DNA of 64,000 bases from Nannocystis bainbridge (GCF_028368995.1 NZ_JAQNDL010000001.1:3040001-3104000); one strand, 5' to 3'; positions 13,165 through 47,240 are shown, counted from the stretch's first letter. Notes: generated by a model from the letters alone, not told the origin. Program-made: numbers and translations.

Positions 13165-16155
13165 ATGGCGCCCCTTCTCGAGCAGGCCAGCGACGTCGCC
13201 GCGTGGAAGCCCCGTTCTGCGCTCCTCGGCACGCTGCTGGCCAACCGCTACCGGATCACCCAATCCATCGGTCAGGGTTCGACCGGCGCGGTCTACCGCG
13301 CCGAAGACCTGTTGATGAACCGGCCGGTCGCGGTCCGGATCCTCGTCCCGAGCCTCGCGCAGAACCCTACGGTGGTCTCGCGGATCCGCGCTCGCATCGA
13401 CCGCAACATCAAGATCCAGCAGCAGCAGCCTGATGCGTTGGTCAACCTCGTCGACGCATTCGACGTCGGCATGACCCTCGAGGGCGAGCTCTTCATCGTC
13501 ACCGATTTCCTCGACGGTGATCATCTTTCGGCGATGCTCGAGCGCGGCGGTCGGCTGCCGTGGTCGCGCGCCCGCCACCTCTTCATTCGCCTGAGCCAGC
13601 TCCTGCAGGCCCTGCACGAGCGGGGCATCGTGCTCGGCACGCTGCAGGCGCGGCACTGCTACGCGGTCCGCAACCGGCCGAAGAACGAGGCGATCAAGAT
13701 CGTGAGCACGGCGGTGTTCGAGCACATCGCCGCCAACCTCGGCCCGGGCGCCGGCGAGGTCGGGACGCAGATGGCCCGCTATGCCGCGCCGGAGCAGGGC
13801 TGCGGCGAGCCGACGGACATCCGCACCGACGTCTACTCGCTCGGCATCATCGCCTACGAGCTGCTGACCGGGAAGCTGCCGTTCAACGAGACCAACCCGA
13901 TCCGACTGGTCGCGCAGCACCTGCACGCCACGCCGCTGCCGCTGCGCCAGGTCGCGCCCGACGCCGACATCCCGGCCGCGGTCGAGGAGGTCGTGCTCAA
14001 GGCGCTGTCCAAGTCGCCTGCCGATCGCCACCCGAGCATGGAGGCCTTCGCCGCCGCGCTGTCGGCGATCCCCGCCGACGAGGCCGGCGCGCCGACGACG
14101 GCCACCGGCGCCTTCGCCACCGTCGCGCCCGCCGAGCCGCTGCCCTCGACGCCCCCGCCACCGCCGCCGCCCAAGCCGCTGGCCTCGACGCTACCTGTCT
14201 CTTCGGACAACCTCTCCGCACCTGTCCCTTCGGTCAGCTCGGCCGCCGCCGCCGCTGCCGTCGAGGAGCCGTCGCCGTCGACCTCCGGCGCCGCGCCGGC
14301 GAAGATCGCCCCCTCGGTGGTCATGCGCGGGCTCATCGACGCCCCCGCCACTCCGCCGGGCCCGCCTCCGCCCCCGCCGACCTCGATCGCCCCGCCGCCG
14401 CCGGTCGGCCCGCGACGGCCGCCGTCGATCGCGGTGCCGACGCTGATCCCCTCGCCGCGCCGCCCGTCCGAGCCGGTCGCCTCGGCACCTGTACCTTCGG
14501 CCATGTCCGAAAGCGCAGCCGACAAGCCGACCGAGGCCCCGGTCGCCGCCGAGCCGCCGCCGGCCCCCGCGCCCGAAGCCCCGCCGGCCGCCACGCCTGT
14601 CGCCGCAGCGCTCGCGACGCCCGCAGCGCCCGAGACGCCCGTGGCTGCCGAGCAGCCGCCCGCTGCCGCCGAGCCACCCGCGCCCGCTGCCGCCGAGCCT
14701 CCTGCGCCCGCCGCCGCCGAGCCGCCCGTCGCCGCCGCCGAGCCGCCTCCGCCCAGCGCCGCCGAGCTGCCGCCGCCGCCGCCCTTCGCCGCCGAGACCC
14801 CGCCGCCTCCGCCGCACTACGCCGCCGAGACCCCGCCCCCGCCTCCGCCCTACGCTGCCGAGCCCCCGCCTGCGCCGGCGCCGATCGCCGCTGCGCCGCC
14901 GCCTCCGCCGGCCCCTGCTGCCGAGCCGACGGTCGCCGCCGTGCCGCCGCCTTCGGCCAAGCCCGCTCCGCTGCCCGCCGAGATCATCCGGATCCCCGCG
15001 CCCGGCGAGTCCATGCGCGCGAGCCTCAGCGACTCGATGCGCGCCTCGGCCGAGTCCCTGCGCGCCGCGATCCCGGCCGACTCGATGCGGGCCCCGATCG
15101 CCGCCGACTCCGTGCGCGCCCCGGCCCCGGCCGACTCGACCCGCGCCGCCGCGCCTGCCGACTCGATGCGGGCGCCGATCTCCAGCGACTCCGCGCGGGT
15201 CCGGGCGGCCGAGATCGTGGCTGTCCCTGCGGCCCTGTCCGCAAAGCCAGATGAAGCCTCGGCCGCCGCCTCGGTCAGCGCGCGCCGGGTCGCCGCCGCC
15301 GACGTCGCCCCCGAGACCTTGCGGGCCGCCGCCCTGCGCCAGTCGCAGTCGGGCGAGCGCCTGACCTCGAGCGCCGAGCTGCGGCCGACCGAGTCGATCA
15401 TCGCCGAGCTGCCGAAGCGGCGGACCCCGTGGGTCGCGATCGTCGGCCTCGGCGCCGCGCTGGCTGCCGGCGCCGCCGCGTACATCCAGACCGAGCCCGA
15501 GGTCGCCCCGCAGGCCAATCGCGCCGTCACGCCGCCGCCGGCCAAAATCGAGCCGAAGACCGCCCCGCCGGTCAAGGCCGACCCCACGCCGATCCCCGCC
15601 AAGGTCGAGCCGCCGCCGCCCGATCCGGTCCCGATCGTCGCGCCCCCGCCCGACCCCGAGCCCGCCCCGCGCGACGTCGAGAGCGAGGAGCCGAAGAAGA
15701 AGAAGAAGCGCCGGGCCAAGAGCACCGAGCCCGAGGAGGAAGAGGAGGATCTGTTCGACCAGGTCCGCAAGCACATGGAGGCCAAGAAGGCCCAGGAGGA
15801 GGCCTACAAGAAGGCCGCCGAGGCCGGCACCTCGCTGCCCGGACCTGCGCCCACCCCGGCCAACGCCATGCCCGCGCCCGCGCCCAAGCCGGCCGTCGAG
15901 GACAACGCCACCAAGGCCAAGGACACCCTCGACCGCGCCCGCCAGGCCGCGCAGCAGAGCAACCATCCCCTCGCGTACAGCCTCGCCAAGCAGGCCAACG
16001 CGCTCGCGCGCTCGCAGGACGCGATCGAGCTCATGGGCGTGTCTGCCTGCAAGGCCGGCAACGCCGACAACGCCCGCAGCGCCGCCGACCAGCTGACCGG
16101 CGCGCGCCGCAGCGCCGTCTACAGCGCCTGCGCCGGCAACGGCATCACCCTCTGA
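13165..16155 (+). CDS. Ser/Thr kinase-like protein (probable pseudokinase) with Pro-rich linker, TM and C-terminal domain
   Basis: IGQGSTGAVY, YAAPEQ and DVYSLG retained; VAxK, HRD and DFG motifs degenerate; TM at PWVAIVGLGAALAAGAAAY. Confidence 0.85.
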   Translation: MAPLLEQASDVAAWKPRSALLGTLLANRYRITQSIGQGSTGAVYRAEDLLMNRPVAVRILVPSLAQNPTVVSRIRARIDRNIKIQQQQPDALVNLVDAFDVGMTLEGELFIVTDFLDGDHLSAMLERGGRLPWSRARHLFIRLSQLLQALHERGIVLGTLQARHCYAVRNRPKNEAIKIVSTAVFEHIAANLGPGAGEVGTQMARYAAPEQGCGEPTDIRTDVYSLGIIAYELLTGKLPFNETNPIRLVAQHLHATPLPLRQVAPDADIPAAVEEVVLKALSKSPADRHPSMEAFAAALSAIPADEAGAPTTATGAFATVAPAEPLPSTPPPPPPPKPLASTLPVSSDNLSAPVPSVSSAAAAAAVEEPSPSTSGAAPAKIAPSVVMRGLIDAPATPPGPPPPPPTSIAPPPPVGPRRPPSIAVPTLIPSPRRPSEPVASAPVPSAMSESAADKPTEAPVAAEPPPAPAPEAPPAATPVAAALATPAAPETPVAAEQPPAAAEPPAPAAAEPPAPAAAEPPVAAAEPPPPSAAELPPPPPFAAETPPPPPHYAAETPPPPPPYAAEPPPAPAPIAAAPPPPPAPAAEPTVAAVPPPSAKPAPLPAEIIRIPAPGESMRASLSDSMRASAESLRAAIPADSMRAPIAADSVRAPAPADSTRAAAPADSMRAPISSDSARVRAAEIVAVPAALSAKPDEASAAASVSARRVAAADVAPETLRAAALRQSQSGERLTSSAELRPTESIIAELPKRRTPWVAIVGLGAALAAGAAAYIQTEPEVAPQANRAVTPPPAKIEPKTAPPVKADPTPIPAKVEPPPPDPVPIVAPPPDPEPAPRDVESEEPKKKKKRRAKSTEPEEEEEDLFDQVRKHMEAKKAQEEAYKKAAEAGTSLPGPAPTPANAMPAPAPKPAVEDNATKAKDTLDRARQAAQQSNHPLAYSLAKQANALARSQDAIELMGVSACKAGNADNARSAADQLTGARRSAVYSACAGNGITL

Positions 16156-16292
16156 GCGCAGATCTCTCCGCTCGCCCCGGCCGCCCGCTGCCTGCAGCGC
16201 GGCGGCCTTCGTGCTTTCTCGGGCCCGCGAGCGGCGGCTCTCCCCGCCCTCGTCCGGCCGCCTTCGCAGCGAAGGCCCCGGCGAGCGGAGCA

Positions 16293-16344
16293 TCACATGT
16301 CCCCATGAACATGTCTCCAAGAGCATGCTCTTCAGGACATACCC
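16293..16344. repeat. 14-bp-phased CATG array
   Basis: CATG at 16296, 16310, 16324; CATA at 16338. Confidence 0.8.
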
Positions 16345-16509
16345 ACGTGCCTGTCTGCCCGCGGCGATCGTCGCCCGCTCTCGCCCGCGCCGCGCGGACG
16401 CATGCCTGAGCTCCGCGGCCGCCGCACGAGCGATCCGCCGCCTCGACTTCACCGGCCTCGCCTGCCACCGTGAAGATCGGCCAATACGCGGCCGAGAAAG
16501 CGAGTCACC

Positions 16510-16584
16510 ATGAAGACGAAGACGAGCACCCGCGCCGGCTCTGGCTCCGGCTCTGTTGGTACCAACCCGCTGTACAGCGGCTAG
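16510..16584 (+). CDS. micropeptide 1, MKTKTSTRAGSGSGSVGTNPLYSG (24 aa)
   Basis: One of four paralogous short ORFs with shared leader and NPL[YF]; preceded by GAGAAAGCGAGTCACC. Confidence 0.8.
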   Translation: MKTKTSTRAGSGSGSVGTNPLYSG

Positions 16585-16650
16585 CGCCGCCCCTGCCCGA
16601 CATGTCCTTTTTGACATGTTGCGAGGCAGCCGCCGCGACCGCTGTGGCAT

Positions 16651-16671
16651 CACGGCACACGCGGTGCCGCC
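16651..16671. promoter_or_regulatory. conserved palindrome CACGGCACACGCGGTGCCGCC (copy 1); hairpin or sigma54-like GG-N10-GC
   Basis: Near-identical copies at 16837 and 17166. Confidence 0.6.
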
Positions 16672-16709
16672 ACGACAACGAACCACCGGACCCGAGAAAC
16701 GAAGGACTG

Positions 16710-16763
16710 ATGAAGATCAAGACCAACACCCGCGCCGGCGGCGACAACCCGCTCTACCACTGA
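16710..16763 (+). CDS. micropeptide 2, MKIKTNTRAGGDNPLYH (17 aa)
   Basis: Paralog of peptide 1; GAAGGA RBS-like sequence upstream. Confidence 0.8.
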   Translation: MKIKTNTRAGGDNPLYH

Positions 16764-16836
16764 CCTCGCAGAGCATGTCCCTCCGGACATTTCCCCATGC
16801 GAGACGAACGCCAGGCCGCGACGACCGCCGCGGCCC

Positions 16837-16857
16837 CACGGCACACGCAGTGCCGCC
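16837..16857. promoter_or_regulatory. conserved palindrome copy 2
   Basis: CACGGCACACGCAGTGCCGCC. Confidence 0.6.
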
Positions 16858-16915
16858 CGATCGCAACCCGACAACGGCAGCGGGCCACCCGCCCGCGGCC
16901 GAGGACGAGCTGACC

Positions 16916-16972
16916 ATGAAGACCAGGACCCACACGCGCGCTGGCGGCGTCGCCATCAACCCCCTCTACTAG
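16916..16972 (+). CDS. micropeptide 3, MKTRTHTRAGGVAINPLY (18 aa)
   Basis: Paralog; GAGGACGAGCTGACC upstream. Confidence 0.8.
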   Translation: MKTRTHTRAGGVAINPLY

Positions 16973-17032
16973 CCGTGTTCTTTAAACCTGTCCGCTGTGC
17001 GAACCCGTCGGCGGGCGAGAAACGAGCTGACC

Positions 17033-17095
17033 ATGAAGACGAGAACCAACACCCGCGCCCGCGCCGGCACTGGCGAAAACCCGCTGTTCACCTGA
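17033..17095 (+). CDS. micropeptide 4, MKTRTNTRARAGTGENPLFT (20 aa)
   Basis: Paralog; GAGAAACGAGCTGACC upstream. Confidence 0.8.
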   Translation: MKTRTNTRARAGTGENPLFT

Positions 17096-17165
17096 CCTGC
17101 CGCGACGTGTCCTTCCGGCACGGCCCTGGCAGGGCGAACGATCTGGGCGCCGTGACCACCGCCCC

Positions 17166-17186
17166 CACGGCACACGCAGTGCCGCC
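17166..17186. promoter_or_regulatory. conserved palindrome copy 3
   Basis: CACGGCACACGCAGTGCCGCC. Confidence 0.6.
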
Positions 17187-17229
17187 TCGATCGCAGCCGT
17201 GAGCCGCAGAGGGCTTTCAGCCGCACAAA

Positions 17230-17300
17230 AGGTCCCGTCGGGATTCGAACCCGAATAACCCGTGTTGCAGACGGGCACCTGGCCGCTCGGACACGGGACC
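17230..17300 (-). tRNA. tRNA-Cys(GCA), copy A
   Basis: Acceptor GGTCCCG/CGGGACC, anticodon arm CCCGT-CTGCAAC-ACGGG, T arm TCGGG-TTCGAAT-CCCGA, U73; CCA not encoded. Confidence 0.9.
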
Positions 17301-17334
17301 ATGCTCTGCTCCGATCTCTCCCAGTTCTCAAAAG

Positions 17335-17405
17335 AGGTCCCGTCGGGATTCGAACCCGAATAACCCGTGTTGCAGACGGGCACCTGGCCGCTCGGACACG
17401 GGACC
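17335..17405 (-). tRNA. tRNA-Cys(GCA), copy B (identical to A)
   Basis: Same 71-nt cloverleaf. Confidence 0.9.
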
Positions 17406-17441
17406 ATGCTCTGATCTCTCCCCATTCTTTATTTTATAAAA

Positions 17442-17512
17442 AGGTCCCGTCGGGATTCGAACCCGAATAGCTCGAGTTGCAGTCGAGCACCTGGCCGTTC
17501 GGACACGGGACC
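17442..17512 (-). tRNA. tRNA-Cys(GCA), copy C
   Basis: Same scaffold with a compensatory anticodon stem CTCGA-CTGCAAC-TCGAG. Confidence 0.9.
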
Positions 17513-17652
17513 CAATGTTTGATTCGCGGCGTGGTGAATCGATGCAGCCGCGGCGACGCGGTGGCATCAATCGCCGGCCCTGCCGAGCACGACTCGCGCG
17601 CATGAATGCGACGACTCGAGCGCGGCGGCGCGGACCGGTGCGTCTGGCGTCT

Positions 17653-17720
17653 GCACGCGCAGGCACGCGCAGGCACGCGCAGGCACGCGCAGGCACGCGC
17701 AGGCACGCGCAGGCACGCGC
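17653..17720. repeat. 10-bp tandem repeat (AGGCACGCGC)x6 plus a partial unit
   Basis: Directly visible perfect repeats. Confidence 0.95.
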
Positions 17721-17781
17721 CCCGGGCCGAACTTGGCCGCCACTACTTACAGCTTGTTGCAGCTCGGACCGAGCCGCCGCC

Positions 17782-17856
17782 TCAGCGTCGACACAACGAC
17801 GAAGTCACGCGCAGCGTCTGCGAGCGCGCGAGATCGGTGTGGACGGCGAGGGCCAT
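17782..17856 (-). CDS. putative leader peptide MALAVHTDLARSQTLRVTSSLCRR (24 aa)
   Basis: ATG 9 nt below a sigma70-like -10 box; single Cys (TGT) near the C-terminus; upstream of the tRNA-Cys cluster. Confidence 0.35.
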   Translation of the reverse strand: MALAVHTDLARSQTLRVTSSLCRR

Positions 17857-17865
17857 GATGCGAAT

Positions 17866-17894
17866 GAAATACCACCGCCCCGCCGCCCCGTCAA
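17866..17894 (-). promoter_or_regulatory. sigma70-like promoter TTGACG-N17-TATTTC pointing at the tRNA-Cys cluster
   Basis: -35 at 17894-17889, -10 at 17871-17866, TG extended -10. Confidence 0.6.
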
Positions 17895-18062
17895 CTCCTA
17901 CGATTCGCGCCCGCGACGTTTTTGCTTCGACCCCGAAGCAAGCACCGCGAACTACGATTATTCCCTGACTCCCGACCACACCTGGCGGGCGCACCCACCG
18001 CCCGCGGCGACTCACGACATCCGCCTTGAGCCTGGCGCGCGCCCCCACTACTGTCGCGCGCC

Positions 18063-19847
18063 GTGCCGCGCCGCTCGCCCGCGATCGTCTCCCCCGCCGC
18101 CCTTTTCGCGCTCGCCTGCGCCTGCACCGTCACGCGCTCAGCCCCACCTGCCCGCGAGCCGCAGCCCGCGGCTGCCCAGGCCCCCGCGACCGCGCCCGAG
18201 CCCGTCGCCTACGCCCTCTCGCCCGTGTTCGAGCAGGACGCGCTCGTCGCCTTGCAAGTCGAGATCCGCCTGCGCGGCGACGCTGACGGCCTCACGCGCC
18301 TCAAGCTGCCCGAGCAGTGGGGCGACGCCCGCGAGCTGTGGAAGTTGATCCGCGACCTCGAGGTCGAGGGCGCCACCGCCGTCGCCGAGGACGGCCCCAC
18401 CGTGCGCACGATCGCCGCCCCCGCCGGCGCCCCGCTGCAGATCCGCTACCGCCTCGTCTCCGGCTTCGACCACGACCCGACCTCCGAGGACGGCCAGCCG
18501 TTCAAGCCGATCATCCGGCCGACCTGGTTCGACGTGTTCGGCGAGTCGCTGTTCGCCTATCCCGAGGGCCGCGAGGACGACCCTGCCCGCTTCGAGTGGC
18601 GCGGCGCCCCGGCCGGCTTCGGCTTCGCCAGCGACCTCGAGCACCTCGCCGGCGCCCGGCCCGGCGTCGTCGGCGACGTCGTCGAGAGCGTCGTCATCGG
18701 CGGCCGCGACCTCAGCGTCCGCACCGACCCCGGCGGTCAGGTGCGCGTGGCGATCCTCGGCAGCTACGACTTCGGCCACGACGCCTTCTTCGACCTCTCG
18801 CTGGCCGTCATCGCCGCCGAGCGCGAGTTCTGGGGCGACAAGGACGGCGCCTTCCTGATCACCCTCGCCCCGCAGCAGAAGATCGCCGGCAGCCTGACCT
18901 ACGGCGGCACCGGCCGGTCCGACGCCTTCACCCTCAGCGTCTCGCAGGACCTCCCGTTCCCGCCGCTGCGCCACCTCCTGGCCCACGAGTATTTCCACAC
19001 CTGGAACGCGCGCCAGCTGGGCGGCCAGGCCGAGGGCCTCGCCGAGGGCGCCGGCAAGTGGTTCGCCGAGGGCTTCACCGAGTTCTACACCTGGCGCCTG
19101 CTGCTGCGCGCCGGCCTCTACAGCCTCGAGGACTTCGTCGCCGCCTGGAACACCGGCCTCGTCGAGTACTGGACCTCGCCGGTGCGCGACGAGCCCAACG
19201 CGCGGATCGTCGCCGACTACTGGAACGACCACACCGTCAGCCGCCTGCCCTACCGCCGCGGCCCGCTGCTCGCCGCGATCTGGGAGCAGCGGCTGCGCCA
19301 GGCCACCGGCGGCGCGCGCGACCTCGACGACGTCATGAAGGCCATGCGGGCCAAGGTGCAGGCCTCCCCCGTCAAGCTCGCGCCCGACGCCGCCAGCGTG
19401 TTCCCGCCGGTCTACCGCGAGCTCGGCGGCCCCGACCTCGCCGACGACCTCGAGCGCTTCGTCGTCCAGGGCGTTGCCATCCGCCTGCCGGCCGACGTGT
19501 TCGGCCCGTGTTTGCGCGTCGTCGACAGCCTCCGCCACGAGTTCGAGCGCGGCTGGGACGTCGACGCCACCGCCGCCGCCGACCGCGTCATCACCGGCCT
19601 GCGCAAGGGCTCGCCCGCCTGGCGCGCCGGCCTGCGCGACGGCATGAAGGTCGTCGAGCGCATCGCCGGCGAGCCCGGCGACTCGACCGTGCCCTACGTC
19701 CTGCGCGTCCGCGACGGCAAGCGCGAGCGCCAGATCTCCTTCAAACCCGAGGGCGAACGGCAGTTCCCCATGCAGCAGCTCGAGCTCGCCCCGGGCCTCA
19801 CGCCCGAGCGGCGAGCCGCCTGCGCCCGCGAGCTGTCCGGCGCCTGA
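18063..19847 (+). CDS. M61 family metallopeptidase (lipoprotein, C-terminal PDZ-like)
   Basis: LLAHEYFHTWN, WFAEGFTEFY, GSPAWRAGLRDG. Confidence 0.88.
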   Translation: MPRRSPAIVSPAALFALACACTVTRSAPPAREPQPAAAQAPATAPEPVAYALSPVFEQDALVALQVEIRLRGDADGLTRLKLPEQWGDARELWKLIRDLEVEGATAVAEDGPTVRTIAAPAGAPLQIRYRLVSGFDHDPTSEDGQPFKPIIRPTWFDVFGESLFAYPEGREDDPARFEWRGAPAGFGFASDLEHLAGARPGVVGDVVESVVIGGRDLSVRTDPGGQVRVAILGSYDFGHDAFFDLSLAVIAAEREFWGDKDGAFLITLAPQQKIAGSLTYGGTGRSDAFTLSVSQDLPFPPLRHLLAHEYFHTWNARQLGGQAEGLAEGAGKWFAEGFTEFYTWRLLLRAGLYSLEDFVAAWNTGLVEYWTSPVRDEPNARIVADYWNDHTVSRLPYRRGPLLAAIWEQRLRQATGGARDLDDVMKAMRAKVQASPVKLAPDAASVFPPVYRELGGPDLADDLERFVVQGVAIRLPADVFGPCLRVVDSLRHEFERGWDVDATAAADRVITGLRKGSPAWRAGLRDGMKVVERIAGEPGDSTVPYVLRVRDGKRERQISFKPEGERQFPMQQLELAPGLTPERRAACARELSGA

Positions 19848-47155: not shown

Positions 47156-47240
47156 TGGTGCGAAGGGAGGGACTCGAACCCTCACAGGTTACCCCACCAG
47201 ATCCTTAGTCTGGCGCGTCTACCAATTCCGCCACCTTCGC
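47156..47240 (-). tRNA. tRNA-Leu with anticodon AAG
   Basis: GCGAAGG/CCTTCGC acceptor plus ACCA, D-arm GCGGAATTGGTAGACGC, CCAGA-CTAAGGA-TCTGG, long variable arm, GAGGG-TTCGAGT-CCCTC. Confidence 0.92.

Follow-up and report, generated by a model that had tools for sequence, protein, structure and literature searches.

We interpret a tandem triplet of tRNA-Cys(GCA) genes in Nannocystis as the cysteine member of a supernumerary, horizontally acquired tRNA set that has been amplified in tandem and serves translation as an accessory pool, a reading to which we give a probability of about 65%. The triplet lies in a 64,000-nt stretch of DNA (hereafter the window) from a genome of 11.05 Mb (71.5% GC, five contigs, 90.5% complete). 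Its genes are intact, structurally constrained and supernumerary to a conserved canonical tRNA-Cys; they are limited to six related genomes, where they occupy one site and show copy-number turnover, and they co-occur with a long tRNA array and with a general doubling of tRNAs. The triplet is best read as a genus-level example of supernumerary tRNA genes, a tandem tRNA-Cys of foreign type within a wider second set.

ARAGORN calls four tRNAs in the window, three of them tRNA-Cys(GCA) on the minus strand (17230-17300, 17334-17405 and 17441-17513) and the fourth a tRNA-Leu(AAG); Rfam RF00005 matches each tRNA-Cys at full length (71 nt, 52.2–52.4 bits where the gathering score is 29, E ~2e-8). Taken in the direction of transcription, the cluster consists of copy C (17442–17512), a 36-nt spacer of 31% GC (17406–17441), copy B (17335–17405), a 34-nt spacer of 50% GC (17301–17334; window 71% GC) that gives copy B a U-rich trailer, and copy A (17230–17300, 52.2 bits), the 3′-most gene. 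Start-to-start distances are 105 and 107 bp, and Tandem Repeats Finder reports a period of 105 with 2.7 copies and 88% matches. The first-pass annotation, which had described three 71-nt cloverleaves about 105 bp apart, two of them identical and the third with a compensated anticodon stem, is borne out on each of these points. Alignment shows copies A and B to be identical and copy C to share 65 of 71 nt with them; four of its six changes form two fully compensated anticodon-stem pairs (28:42, C-G to U-A; 31:39, U-A to A-U), the remaining two being a change at position 44 and G15 to A15, which turns the G15/U48 combination of copy A into A15/U48. All three copies have a 4-nt variable loop, U73 and no encoded CCA, and the mismatches U10·U25 and G13·A22 leave two Watson–Crick pairs in the D stem. 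The U10·U25 mismatch and the missing CCA had been put forward as the mark of an atypical tRNA-Cys; GCA, U73 and U10·U25 are indeed present, but the missing CCA is not distinctive, as CCA is encoded in 14 of the genome's 102 tRNAs (raw ARAGORN calls, of which several of 85–97 nt look doubtful) and is absent from the other 88, the canonical tRNA-Cys among them, so that its absence is normal in this genome.

The copies are closely spaced, periodic and in the same orientation, the arrangement that defines an A-array. Their acceptor/T-stem geometry is the ordinary 7/5, unlike the 8/4 or 9/3 of allo-tRNAs and tRNA-Sec-like tRNA-Cys. Around the cluster (16100–18100), Rfam at permissive thresholds returned the three tRNAs and otherwise one sub-threshold mascRNA match overlapping copy C, while a promoter and terminator scan of the same interval gave no promoter-like site and a single terminator-like one, where chance predicts 1.2. 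A perfect 10-bp tandem repeat (GCACGCGCAG, 6.8 copies, 17653–17720) occupies part of the divergent interval that separates the cluster from the adjacent M61 peptidase gene. The tRNA-Leu(AAG) of the window (47156–47240, minus strand, 59.8 bits) has an encoded CCA; A34 is uncommon in bacteria outside tRNA-Arg(ACG).

Conservation of the fold was assessed by counting cloverleaf pairs in an alignment of 17 intact tandem copies from the six genomes, which comprise 12 distinct sequences. The 7-bp acceptor, 5-bp anticodon and 5-bp T helices are 100% paired in all 12, and two pairs of the anticodon stem show double-sided changes (28:42, CG/UA; 31:39, CG/AU/UA). Covarying cells number 11, compared with 3.9±1.8 in shuffled alignments (none of 500 shuffles reached 11), and sliding the pairing partners as a control lowers pairing to 27–62%. 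The anticodon loop is CUGCAAC or CUGCAAA in 17 of 17 intact copies, a 7-nt loop with U33 and A37 in which position 38 is C or A and alignment columns 31–36 are invariant; GCA, U73 (T71 in the alignment), A37 and the T loop are likewise invariant. Because the stems stay paired and two anticodon-stem pairs covary, the fold of the tandem genes is under selection, as the first-pass annotation had concluded from the window by itself. The D stem is looser: 54% of its cells are paired across the 12 distinct sequences, C11-G24 and C12-G23 alone being kept, while 10:25 is U·U in ten sequences and A-U in two, and every sequence has G·A at 13:22. The combination at 15:48 varies among G:U, A:U, G:G and G:C. 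In E. coli, U73 is a major identity element for cysteinyl-tRNA synthetase (CysRS), and recognition by that enzyme is also linked to two core features, a purine mismatch at 13·22 and the 15:48 pair.

The tandem fold is constrained, though less tightly than that of the housekeeping gene. Between species the tandem copies are 86–94% identical and the canonical tRNA-Cys 100%; their Rfam score is 15 bits below that of the canonical copy; and a nearest-neighbour model places their cloverleaf 2.9–4.9 kcal/mol above an alternative fold, whereas the canonical tRNA-Cys folds to the cloverleaf. Together with the weak D stem and with pseudogenized copies (below), these properties fit relaxed constraint. 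The faster divergence, the weak D stem and the alternative fold also lend something to the view that the genes are cryptic relics of an old horizontal acquisition, little transcribed or silent, without present function and drifting by duplication and decay. Further points on that side are the swings in copy number from one to four, the truncated, decayed and split copies of one relative, the tRNA fragment of another, and a published statement that the few long tRNA arrays looked at in previous work were poorly transcribed (PMC8421152). Drift of this sort is nevertheless hard to square with a shared site that retains one or more intact copies in six of six genomes, with three fully paired helices and compensatory changes across 12 distinct sequences, with invariant GCA, U73, A37 and T loop, or with spacers that differ across species in both length and sequence while the tRNA bodies between them remain 86–94% identical; we consider relics unlikely.

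The distribution of the tandem type was followed in 41 genomes, namely the window's own, ten of the same genus and 30 of other genera. The canonical tRNA-Cys is matched in 39 of the 41 and is 100% identical in five large same-genus genomes. The tandem type is matched in six: the window's own and five of the ten same-genus genomes (each 12–13 Mb), with none among the 30 of other genera; the five same-genus genomes that gave no match are fragmented and 64–88% complete, so that the lack of a match there does not establish absence. All six clusters occupy the same site, with a Ser/Thr kinase gene on one side, an M61 peptidase gene on the other and a wider conserved gene order around them; the genes flanking the triplet encode a dicarboxylate symporter, the Ser/Thr kinase, the M61 peptidase, a hybrid histidine kinase, a CAP-domain protein and an OmpA-family protein. 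To date the insertion, the M61 peptidase was also sought in four further genomes of the genus and in one genome from another genus of the family; paralogs of 27–32% identity were all that these searches recovered.

Within this fixed site the number of genes has shifted, with intact copies numbering 3, 3, 3, 3, 4 and 1 in the six genomes. One relative (G001, locus L012) carries extra copies in several states of damage, one without its first 10 nt, two decayed and one split at the variable loop by a 1.65-kb insertion (about 8803–10440 of L012). The insertion has inverted ends of ~34 bp and a long plus-strand open frame (listed at 530 aa) that partly overlaps the repeat, and it looks like a small transposable element that landed in the array. 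Another relative retains a 19-nt tRNA-Cys fragment. Such changes in copy number, accompanied by decayed copies, are as expected of slippage or unequal recombination.

Whole-genome searching located the fourth tRNA-Cys, of canonical type, on a different contig from the triplet (C3:1171397-1171470; called by ARAGORN, Rfam 67.5 bits). It has G10-C25, A13·A22 and a 5-nt variable loop, its cloverleaf is the minimum-energy fold, and a terminator-like hairpin and T-run follow it. The triplet is therefore unusual within its lineage and supplements a distinct canonical gene, which answers a check proposed in the first-pass annotation, and the contrary case, in which the tandem genes would be the sole, lineage-standard tRNA-Cys, does not hold. 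Tandem and canonical types share 61–65% identity, which indicates that the tandem unit is not a duplicate of the housekeeping tRNA-Cys.

The pairing of a resident and a divergent gene extends well beyond cysteine. Almost every anticodon in the genome has two copies, 49–79% identical to each other, a pattern that the two tRNA-Cys types fit; no convincing second tRNA-His gene was found in the genome. By ARAGORN across the whole genome, the second copies sit mostly in arrays: a long array of 23 calls in 2.6 kb (C2:2556665-2559233), a Leu/Tyr/Pro array of seven (C2:2356727-2357509), a Ser array of three (C3:526095-526398) and an Ala pair (C5:153032-153200). The Rfam gathering score is reached by 12 of the 23 calls in the long array, five of seven in the Leu/Tyr/Pro array and two of three in the Ser array, support incomplete enough that part of the second set may be decayed or miscalled. 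Tandem multiplication is seen inside the arrays as well, for Asp (three copies, 91–96% identity) and for Leu. The genome's two tRNA-Leu(GAG) genes both belong to the supernumerary Leu/Tyr/Pro array. Long matches to the 23-gene array (74–88% identity, hundreds of bases) are confined to the five relatives that have the Cys cluster; other relatives match it at single-tRNA length only. Its order is conserved across the six genomes; none of the six array loci includes a Cys gene, and the Cys cluster lies 1–4 Mb away or on another contig. As the cluster stands outside the long array in six of six genomes, common descent of the two is suggested by their co-occurrence among related genomes, which are not independent of one another.

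The near-general doubling also bears on a proposal, made in the first-pass annotation, that the extra genes are plain dosage, raising the supply of Cys-tRNA for many Cys-rich surface or secreted proteins. All four tRNA-Cys genes, among ~100 tRNA calls, read the same codons, and in a crude proteome proxy (5223 ORFs, each ≥200 aa and with GC3 >0.85, ~72% of the genome) 251 ORFs exceed 4% Cys. Over the whole proxy, however, Cys makes up 1.38% of residues, level with Trp as the rarest (codons TGC 31813, TGT 4799), and while Cys has four genes, Trp has two and Ala, at 13.6% of residues, has six. That the rarest residue has four genes, that one species makes do with a single extra copy where others have three or four, and that almost all other anticodons are doubled too argues against a demand specific to Cys, and the amplified unit, at 61–65% identity, is not a copy of the housekeeping gene. 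We judge dosage quite unlikely as the explanation, although it may make some contribution.

The second set invites comparison with known tRNA arrays, for which the relevant threshold is 20 or more tRNA genes with a density no lower than two per kb (PMC4758250 and PMC8421152). In Anabaena, the tRNAs of a horizontally acquired long array are supernumerary isodecoders that remain silent until translation stress, are aminoacylated in vivo and aid survival (PMC8421152). The Nannocystis genes resemble the PCC 7120 long array and other tRNA array units in being supernumerary, divergent isodecoders beside a complete housekeeping set, in their patchy, lineage-restricted distribution and in having pseudogenes among their members (PMC8421152, PMC4758250). 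High total tRNA counts are a further likeness to long-array hosts, with the 102 raw ARAGORN calls of this genome alongside 107 annotated tRNAs in N. exedens DSM 71 (PMC5658511), and the six cluster-bearing genomes also hold a true 23-gene array. The Cys cluster itself differs, being three periodic genes of one isoacceptor and so below the 20-gene threshold. In its shifts of copy number between species and its decayed copies it is closer to the accretive tandem A-arrays, but its unit is a foreign-type tRNA-Cys, 61–65% identical to the resident housekeeping gene, and not a copy of that gene (PMC8421152).

The Haliangium, Myxococcus and Sorangium rows of the same survey list 46–77 tRNAs and no array longer than eight (PMC8421152, in the rows covered). 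The name Nannocystis has no occurrence in the portion of that survey's supplement covered here, no myxobacterial or deltaproteobacterial term appears in the main text of PMC4758250, as far as it was covered, and a full-text literature search pairing tRNA arrays with myxobacterial names returned unrelated work only. The genus-wide second tRNA set of Nannocystis is not described in the literature searched.

The architecture of the tandem unit (71 nt, 4-nt variable loop, 7-nt D loop, G13·A22) appears foreign to Myxococcota. Scanning 185,579 species genomes with the D arm and anticodon expressed as an IUPAC pattern gave 15 loci, five of them the tandem loci again, in five Nannocystis species, and ten elsewhere. 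Of those ten, three are members of longer arrays, with 7, 15 and 21 tRNAs (an Actinomycetota MAG, Tepidisphaeraceae and Streptosporangiaceae), one belongs to an Arg-Cys-Arg group in another Actinomycetota MAG, five are single Bacteroidota tRNA-Cys genes, and at one ARAGORN called no tRNA. The sole viral-contig match to the pattern sits in a 16-tRNA array; a blastn search with the cluster against 50,697 phage records matched nothing. The Nannocystis and Streptosporangiaceae arrays have in common the sub-order Met-Asn-Asp-Val(GAC)-Arg(ACG)-Arg(CCG), and a second Actinomycetota array has almost the same order, Asn-Asp-Val(AAC)-Arg(ACG)-Arg(CCG), with Cys as the next gene. The tandem tRNA-Cys is 70–75% identical to the array Cys genes of other phyla, values that are inflated because the pattern fixes the D arm and that are accordingly no independent evidence of descent.

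Bacteroidota provide a parallel for the design. Their tRNA-Cys genes are 71–72 nt long with a 7-nt D loop (pyrimidine 21), a 4-nt variable loop, G13·A22, U73 and GCA. Among 12 candidate loci of five Bacteroidota genomes ARAGORN called nine tRNA-Cys genes, and every one of the nine has the 7-nt D loop, G13·A22 and 4-nt variable loop, which implies that such a molecule can serve as a cell's ordinary tRNA-Cys. The two differ at 10:25, mostly G10-C25 or G10·U25 in Bacteroidota and U10·U25 (10 of 12) or A10-U25 (2 of 12) in Nannocystis; elsewhere U10·U25 occurs once in a Cytophagales gene and once in the Streptosporangiaceae array. An architecture shared with Bacteroidota and with array-borne tRNA-Cys genes points to horizontal acquisition in the ancestor of the six genomes. 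Derivation from a tRNA-Ser by anticodon change was also considered and rejected, since the nearest tRNAs within the genome, although Ser, agree at 50–52 of 71 positions, too weak a likeness; the combination of G13·A22 and U73 argues for true tRNA-Cys ancestry.

These observations suggest the following course of events. Large-genome Nannocystis species would hold a second, divergent tRNA set of which the triplet is the cysteine member, the rest residing in the 23-gene array and several smaller arrays. The Cys gene, probably acquired by horizontal transfer in the ancestor of the six genomes along with the arrays or in a similar way, would have stayed apart from them at its fixed site, there to be multiplied and pruned by tandem duplication and decay. 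Its transcripts are likely to be trimmed and given CCA as for most tRNAs of the genome. The one CysRS would then charge them by way of U73 and GCA, and they would form an accessory pool for ribosomal translation, whose expression may be conditional if the long array of Anabaena is a guide. If so, Nannocystis would offer a second system, in a distant phylum, for studying the division between housekeeping and alternative tRNA pools, and the triplet would in addition be a natural experiment on the performance of a tRNA-Cys whose D stem has two pairs. More tentatively, the foreign-type set might be near complete (~19 of 20 amino acids), kept since the common ancestor with the triplet as its Cys member, and form an alternative pool induced by stress, predation or development. 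Were a stress-switched second set of this kind true, the translation apparatus would be divided more fully, and would have been so for longer, than by the single long array of Anabaena.

A protective role is conceivable by analogy, with the tandem genes as decoys or back-ups against a tRNA-targeting toxin or an anticodon nuclease that attacks the housekeeping tRNA-Cys. Phages carry spare tRNAs, and that analogy is the whole of the precedent; the anticodon stem-loop context of the tandem copies does differ from that of the canonical copy, with C or A at position 38, but no toxin, immunity or defence gene lies near the triplet, and we regard such a role as very improbable.

The remaining proposal concerns the neighbours of the triplet. 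Four short plus-strand ORFs of 17–24 aa (16510–16584, 16710–16763, 16916–16972 and 17033–17095) converge on the cluster; they have the common form MK(T/I)(K/R)TxTRA...NPL(Y/F) (NPLY peptides) and shared upstream sequence, and a conserved hairpin (CGGCAC-ACGCA-GTGCCG) follows three of the four (16629–16671, 16815–16857 and 17144–17186). The first-pass annotation had raised, as an alternative to dosage, a dedicated Cys-tRNA pool for non-ribosomal chemistry on these peptides, by a PEARL-type ligase or another aminoacyl-tRNA-dependent enzyme. PEARL enzymes are LanB-like peptide aminoacyl-tRNA ligases that carry the LanB N-terminal domain, and one of them, TglB, adds Cys from Cys-tRNA to a scaffold peptide. 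The four converging genes, the single such gene beside the cluster of one relative, and the distinctness of the tandem tRNAs from the housekeeping tRNA-Cys, which an enzyme could use to discriminate between them, speak for this idea. The likeness to PEARL systems, short peptide genes beside tRNA-Cys genes, is on the surface only, and the Nannocystis genome differs in showing no LanB-N-type gene and in that peptides and tRNAs do not co-occur across species.

Synteny of peptides and cluster, which the proposal led one to expect, breaks down in the six genomes, where the two are adjacent in two, unlinked in one and the peptides not found in three. A regular-expression search of the whole genome gave 11 matches, of which the four of NPLY type are all at this locus. 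In the syntenic intergenic region one relative has one NPLY ORF (L012 8469–8525, beside the Cys cluster) and the other four have none, and a DNA pattern for the conserved NPLY 5′ end (at most two mismatches) matches in three of the 41 genomes; the third of these matches (L060) is on a different contig from that genome's Cys cluster, with the same hairpin and no tRNA within 1.5 kb. No family was found for the two peptides of at least 20 aa in NCBIfam at E up to 10, no maturase was seen near the NPLY array, and the peptide modules hold no extra copies of the tRNA 3′ end, all three matches at up to three mismatches falling within the tRNAs.

Enzymes for such chemistry were sought genome-wide, which extends the earlier remark that no PEARL gene is visible in the window to the genome as a whole. 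PF04738 (LanB N-terminal domain) has no match in the genome, although at 90.5% completeness a gene may have been missed; it matches in ten of the 41 genomes and is silent in 14 control genomes, and the matches among relatives show that the search is able to pick up this family. Four of the six genomes with the cluster match, far from the cluster, and no LanB N-terminal frame was found in the window's genome or in G007. No cyclodipeptide synthase match (CDPS, PF16715) was obtained in the window's genome; the control search matched Bacillus subtilis. PF01406 finds one full CysRS (408 bits) and no sign of a second. Given also the unrelated products of the flanking genes, from the symporter and kinase to the CAP and OmpA proteins, we hold a dedicated non-ribosomal pool to be very hard to credit. 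The NPLY genes adjoin the triplet by chance of insertion and are not its partners; there is no tRNA-based link of the peptide array to RiPP or PEARL chemistry, and no effort is warranted in that direction. In three relatives (G003, G005 and G010), frames of 812–878 aa align with the LanB N-terminal domain over no more than its initial ~300 positions. The other PF01406 matches of the window's genome are one 28-bit partial (74 positions in a 711-aa frame) and five identical 25.6-bit partials covering positions 1–50 of the CysRS catalytic domain; these five lie in frames of 635–699 aa near two contig ends (C1:4517882-4518037, 4530589-4530744 and 4535176-4535331; C2:3027793-3027948 and 3032397-3032552) and represent a repeated element or gene family.
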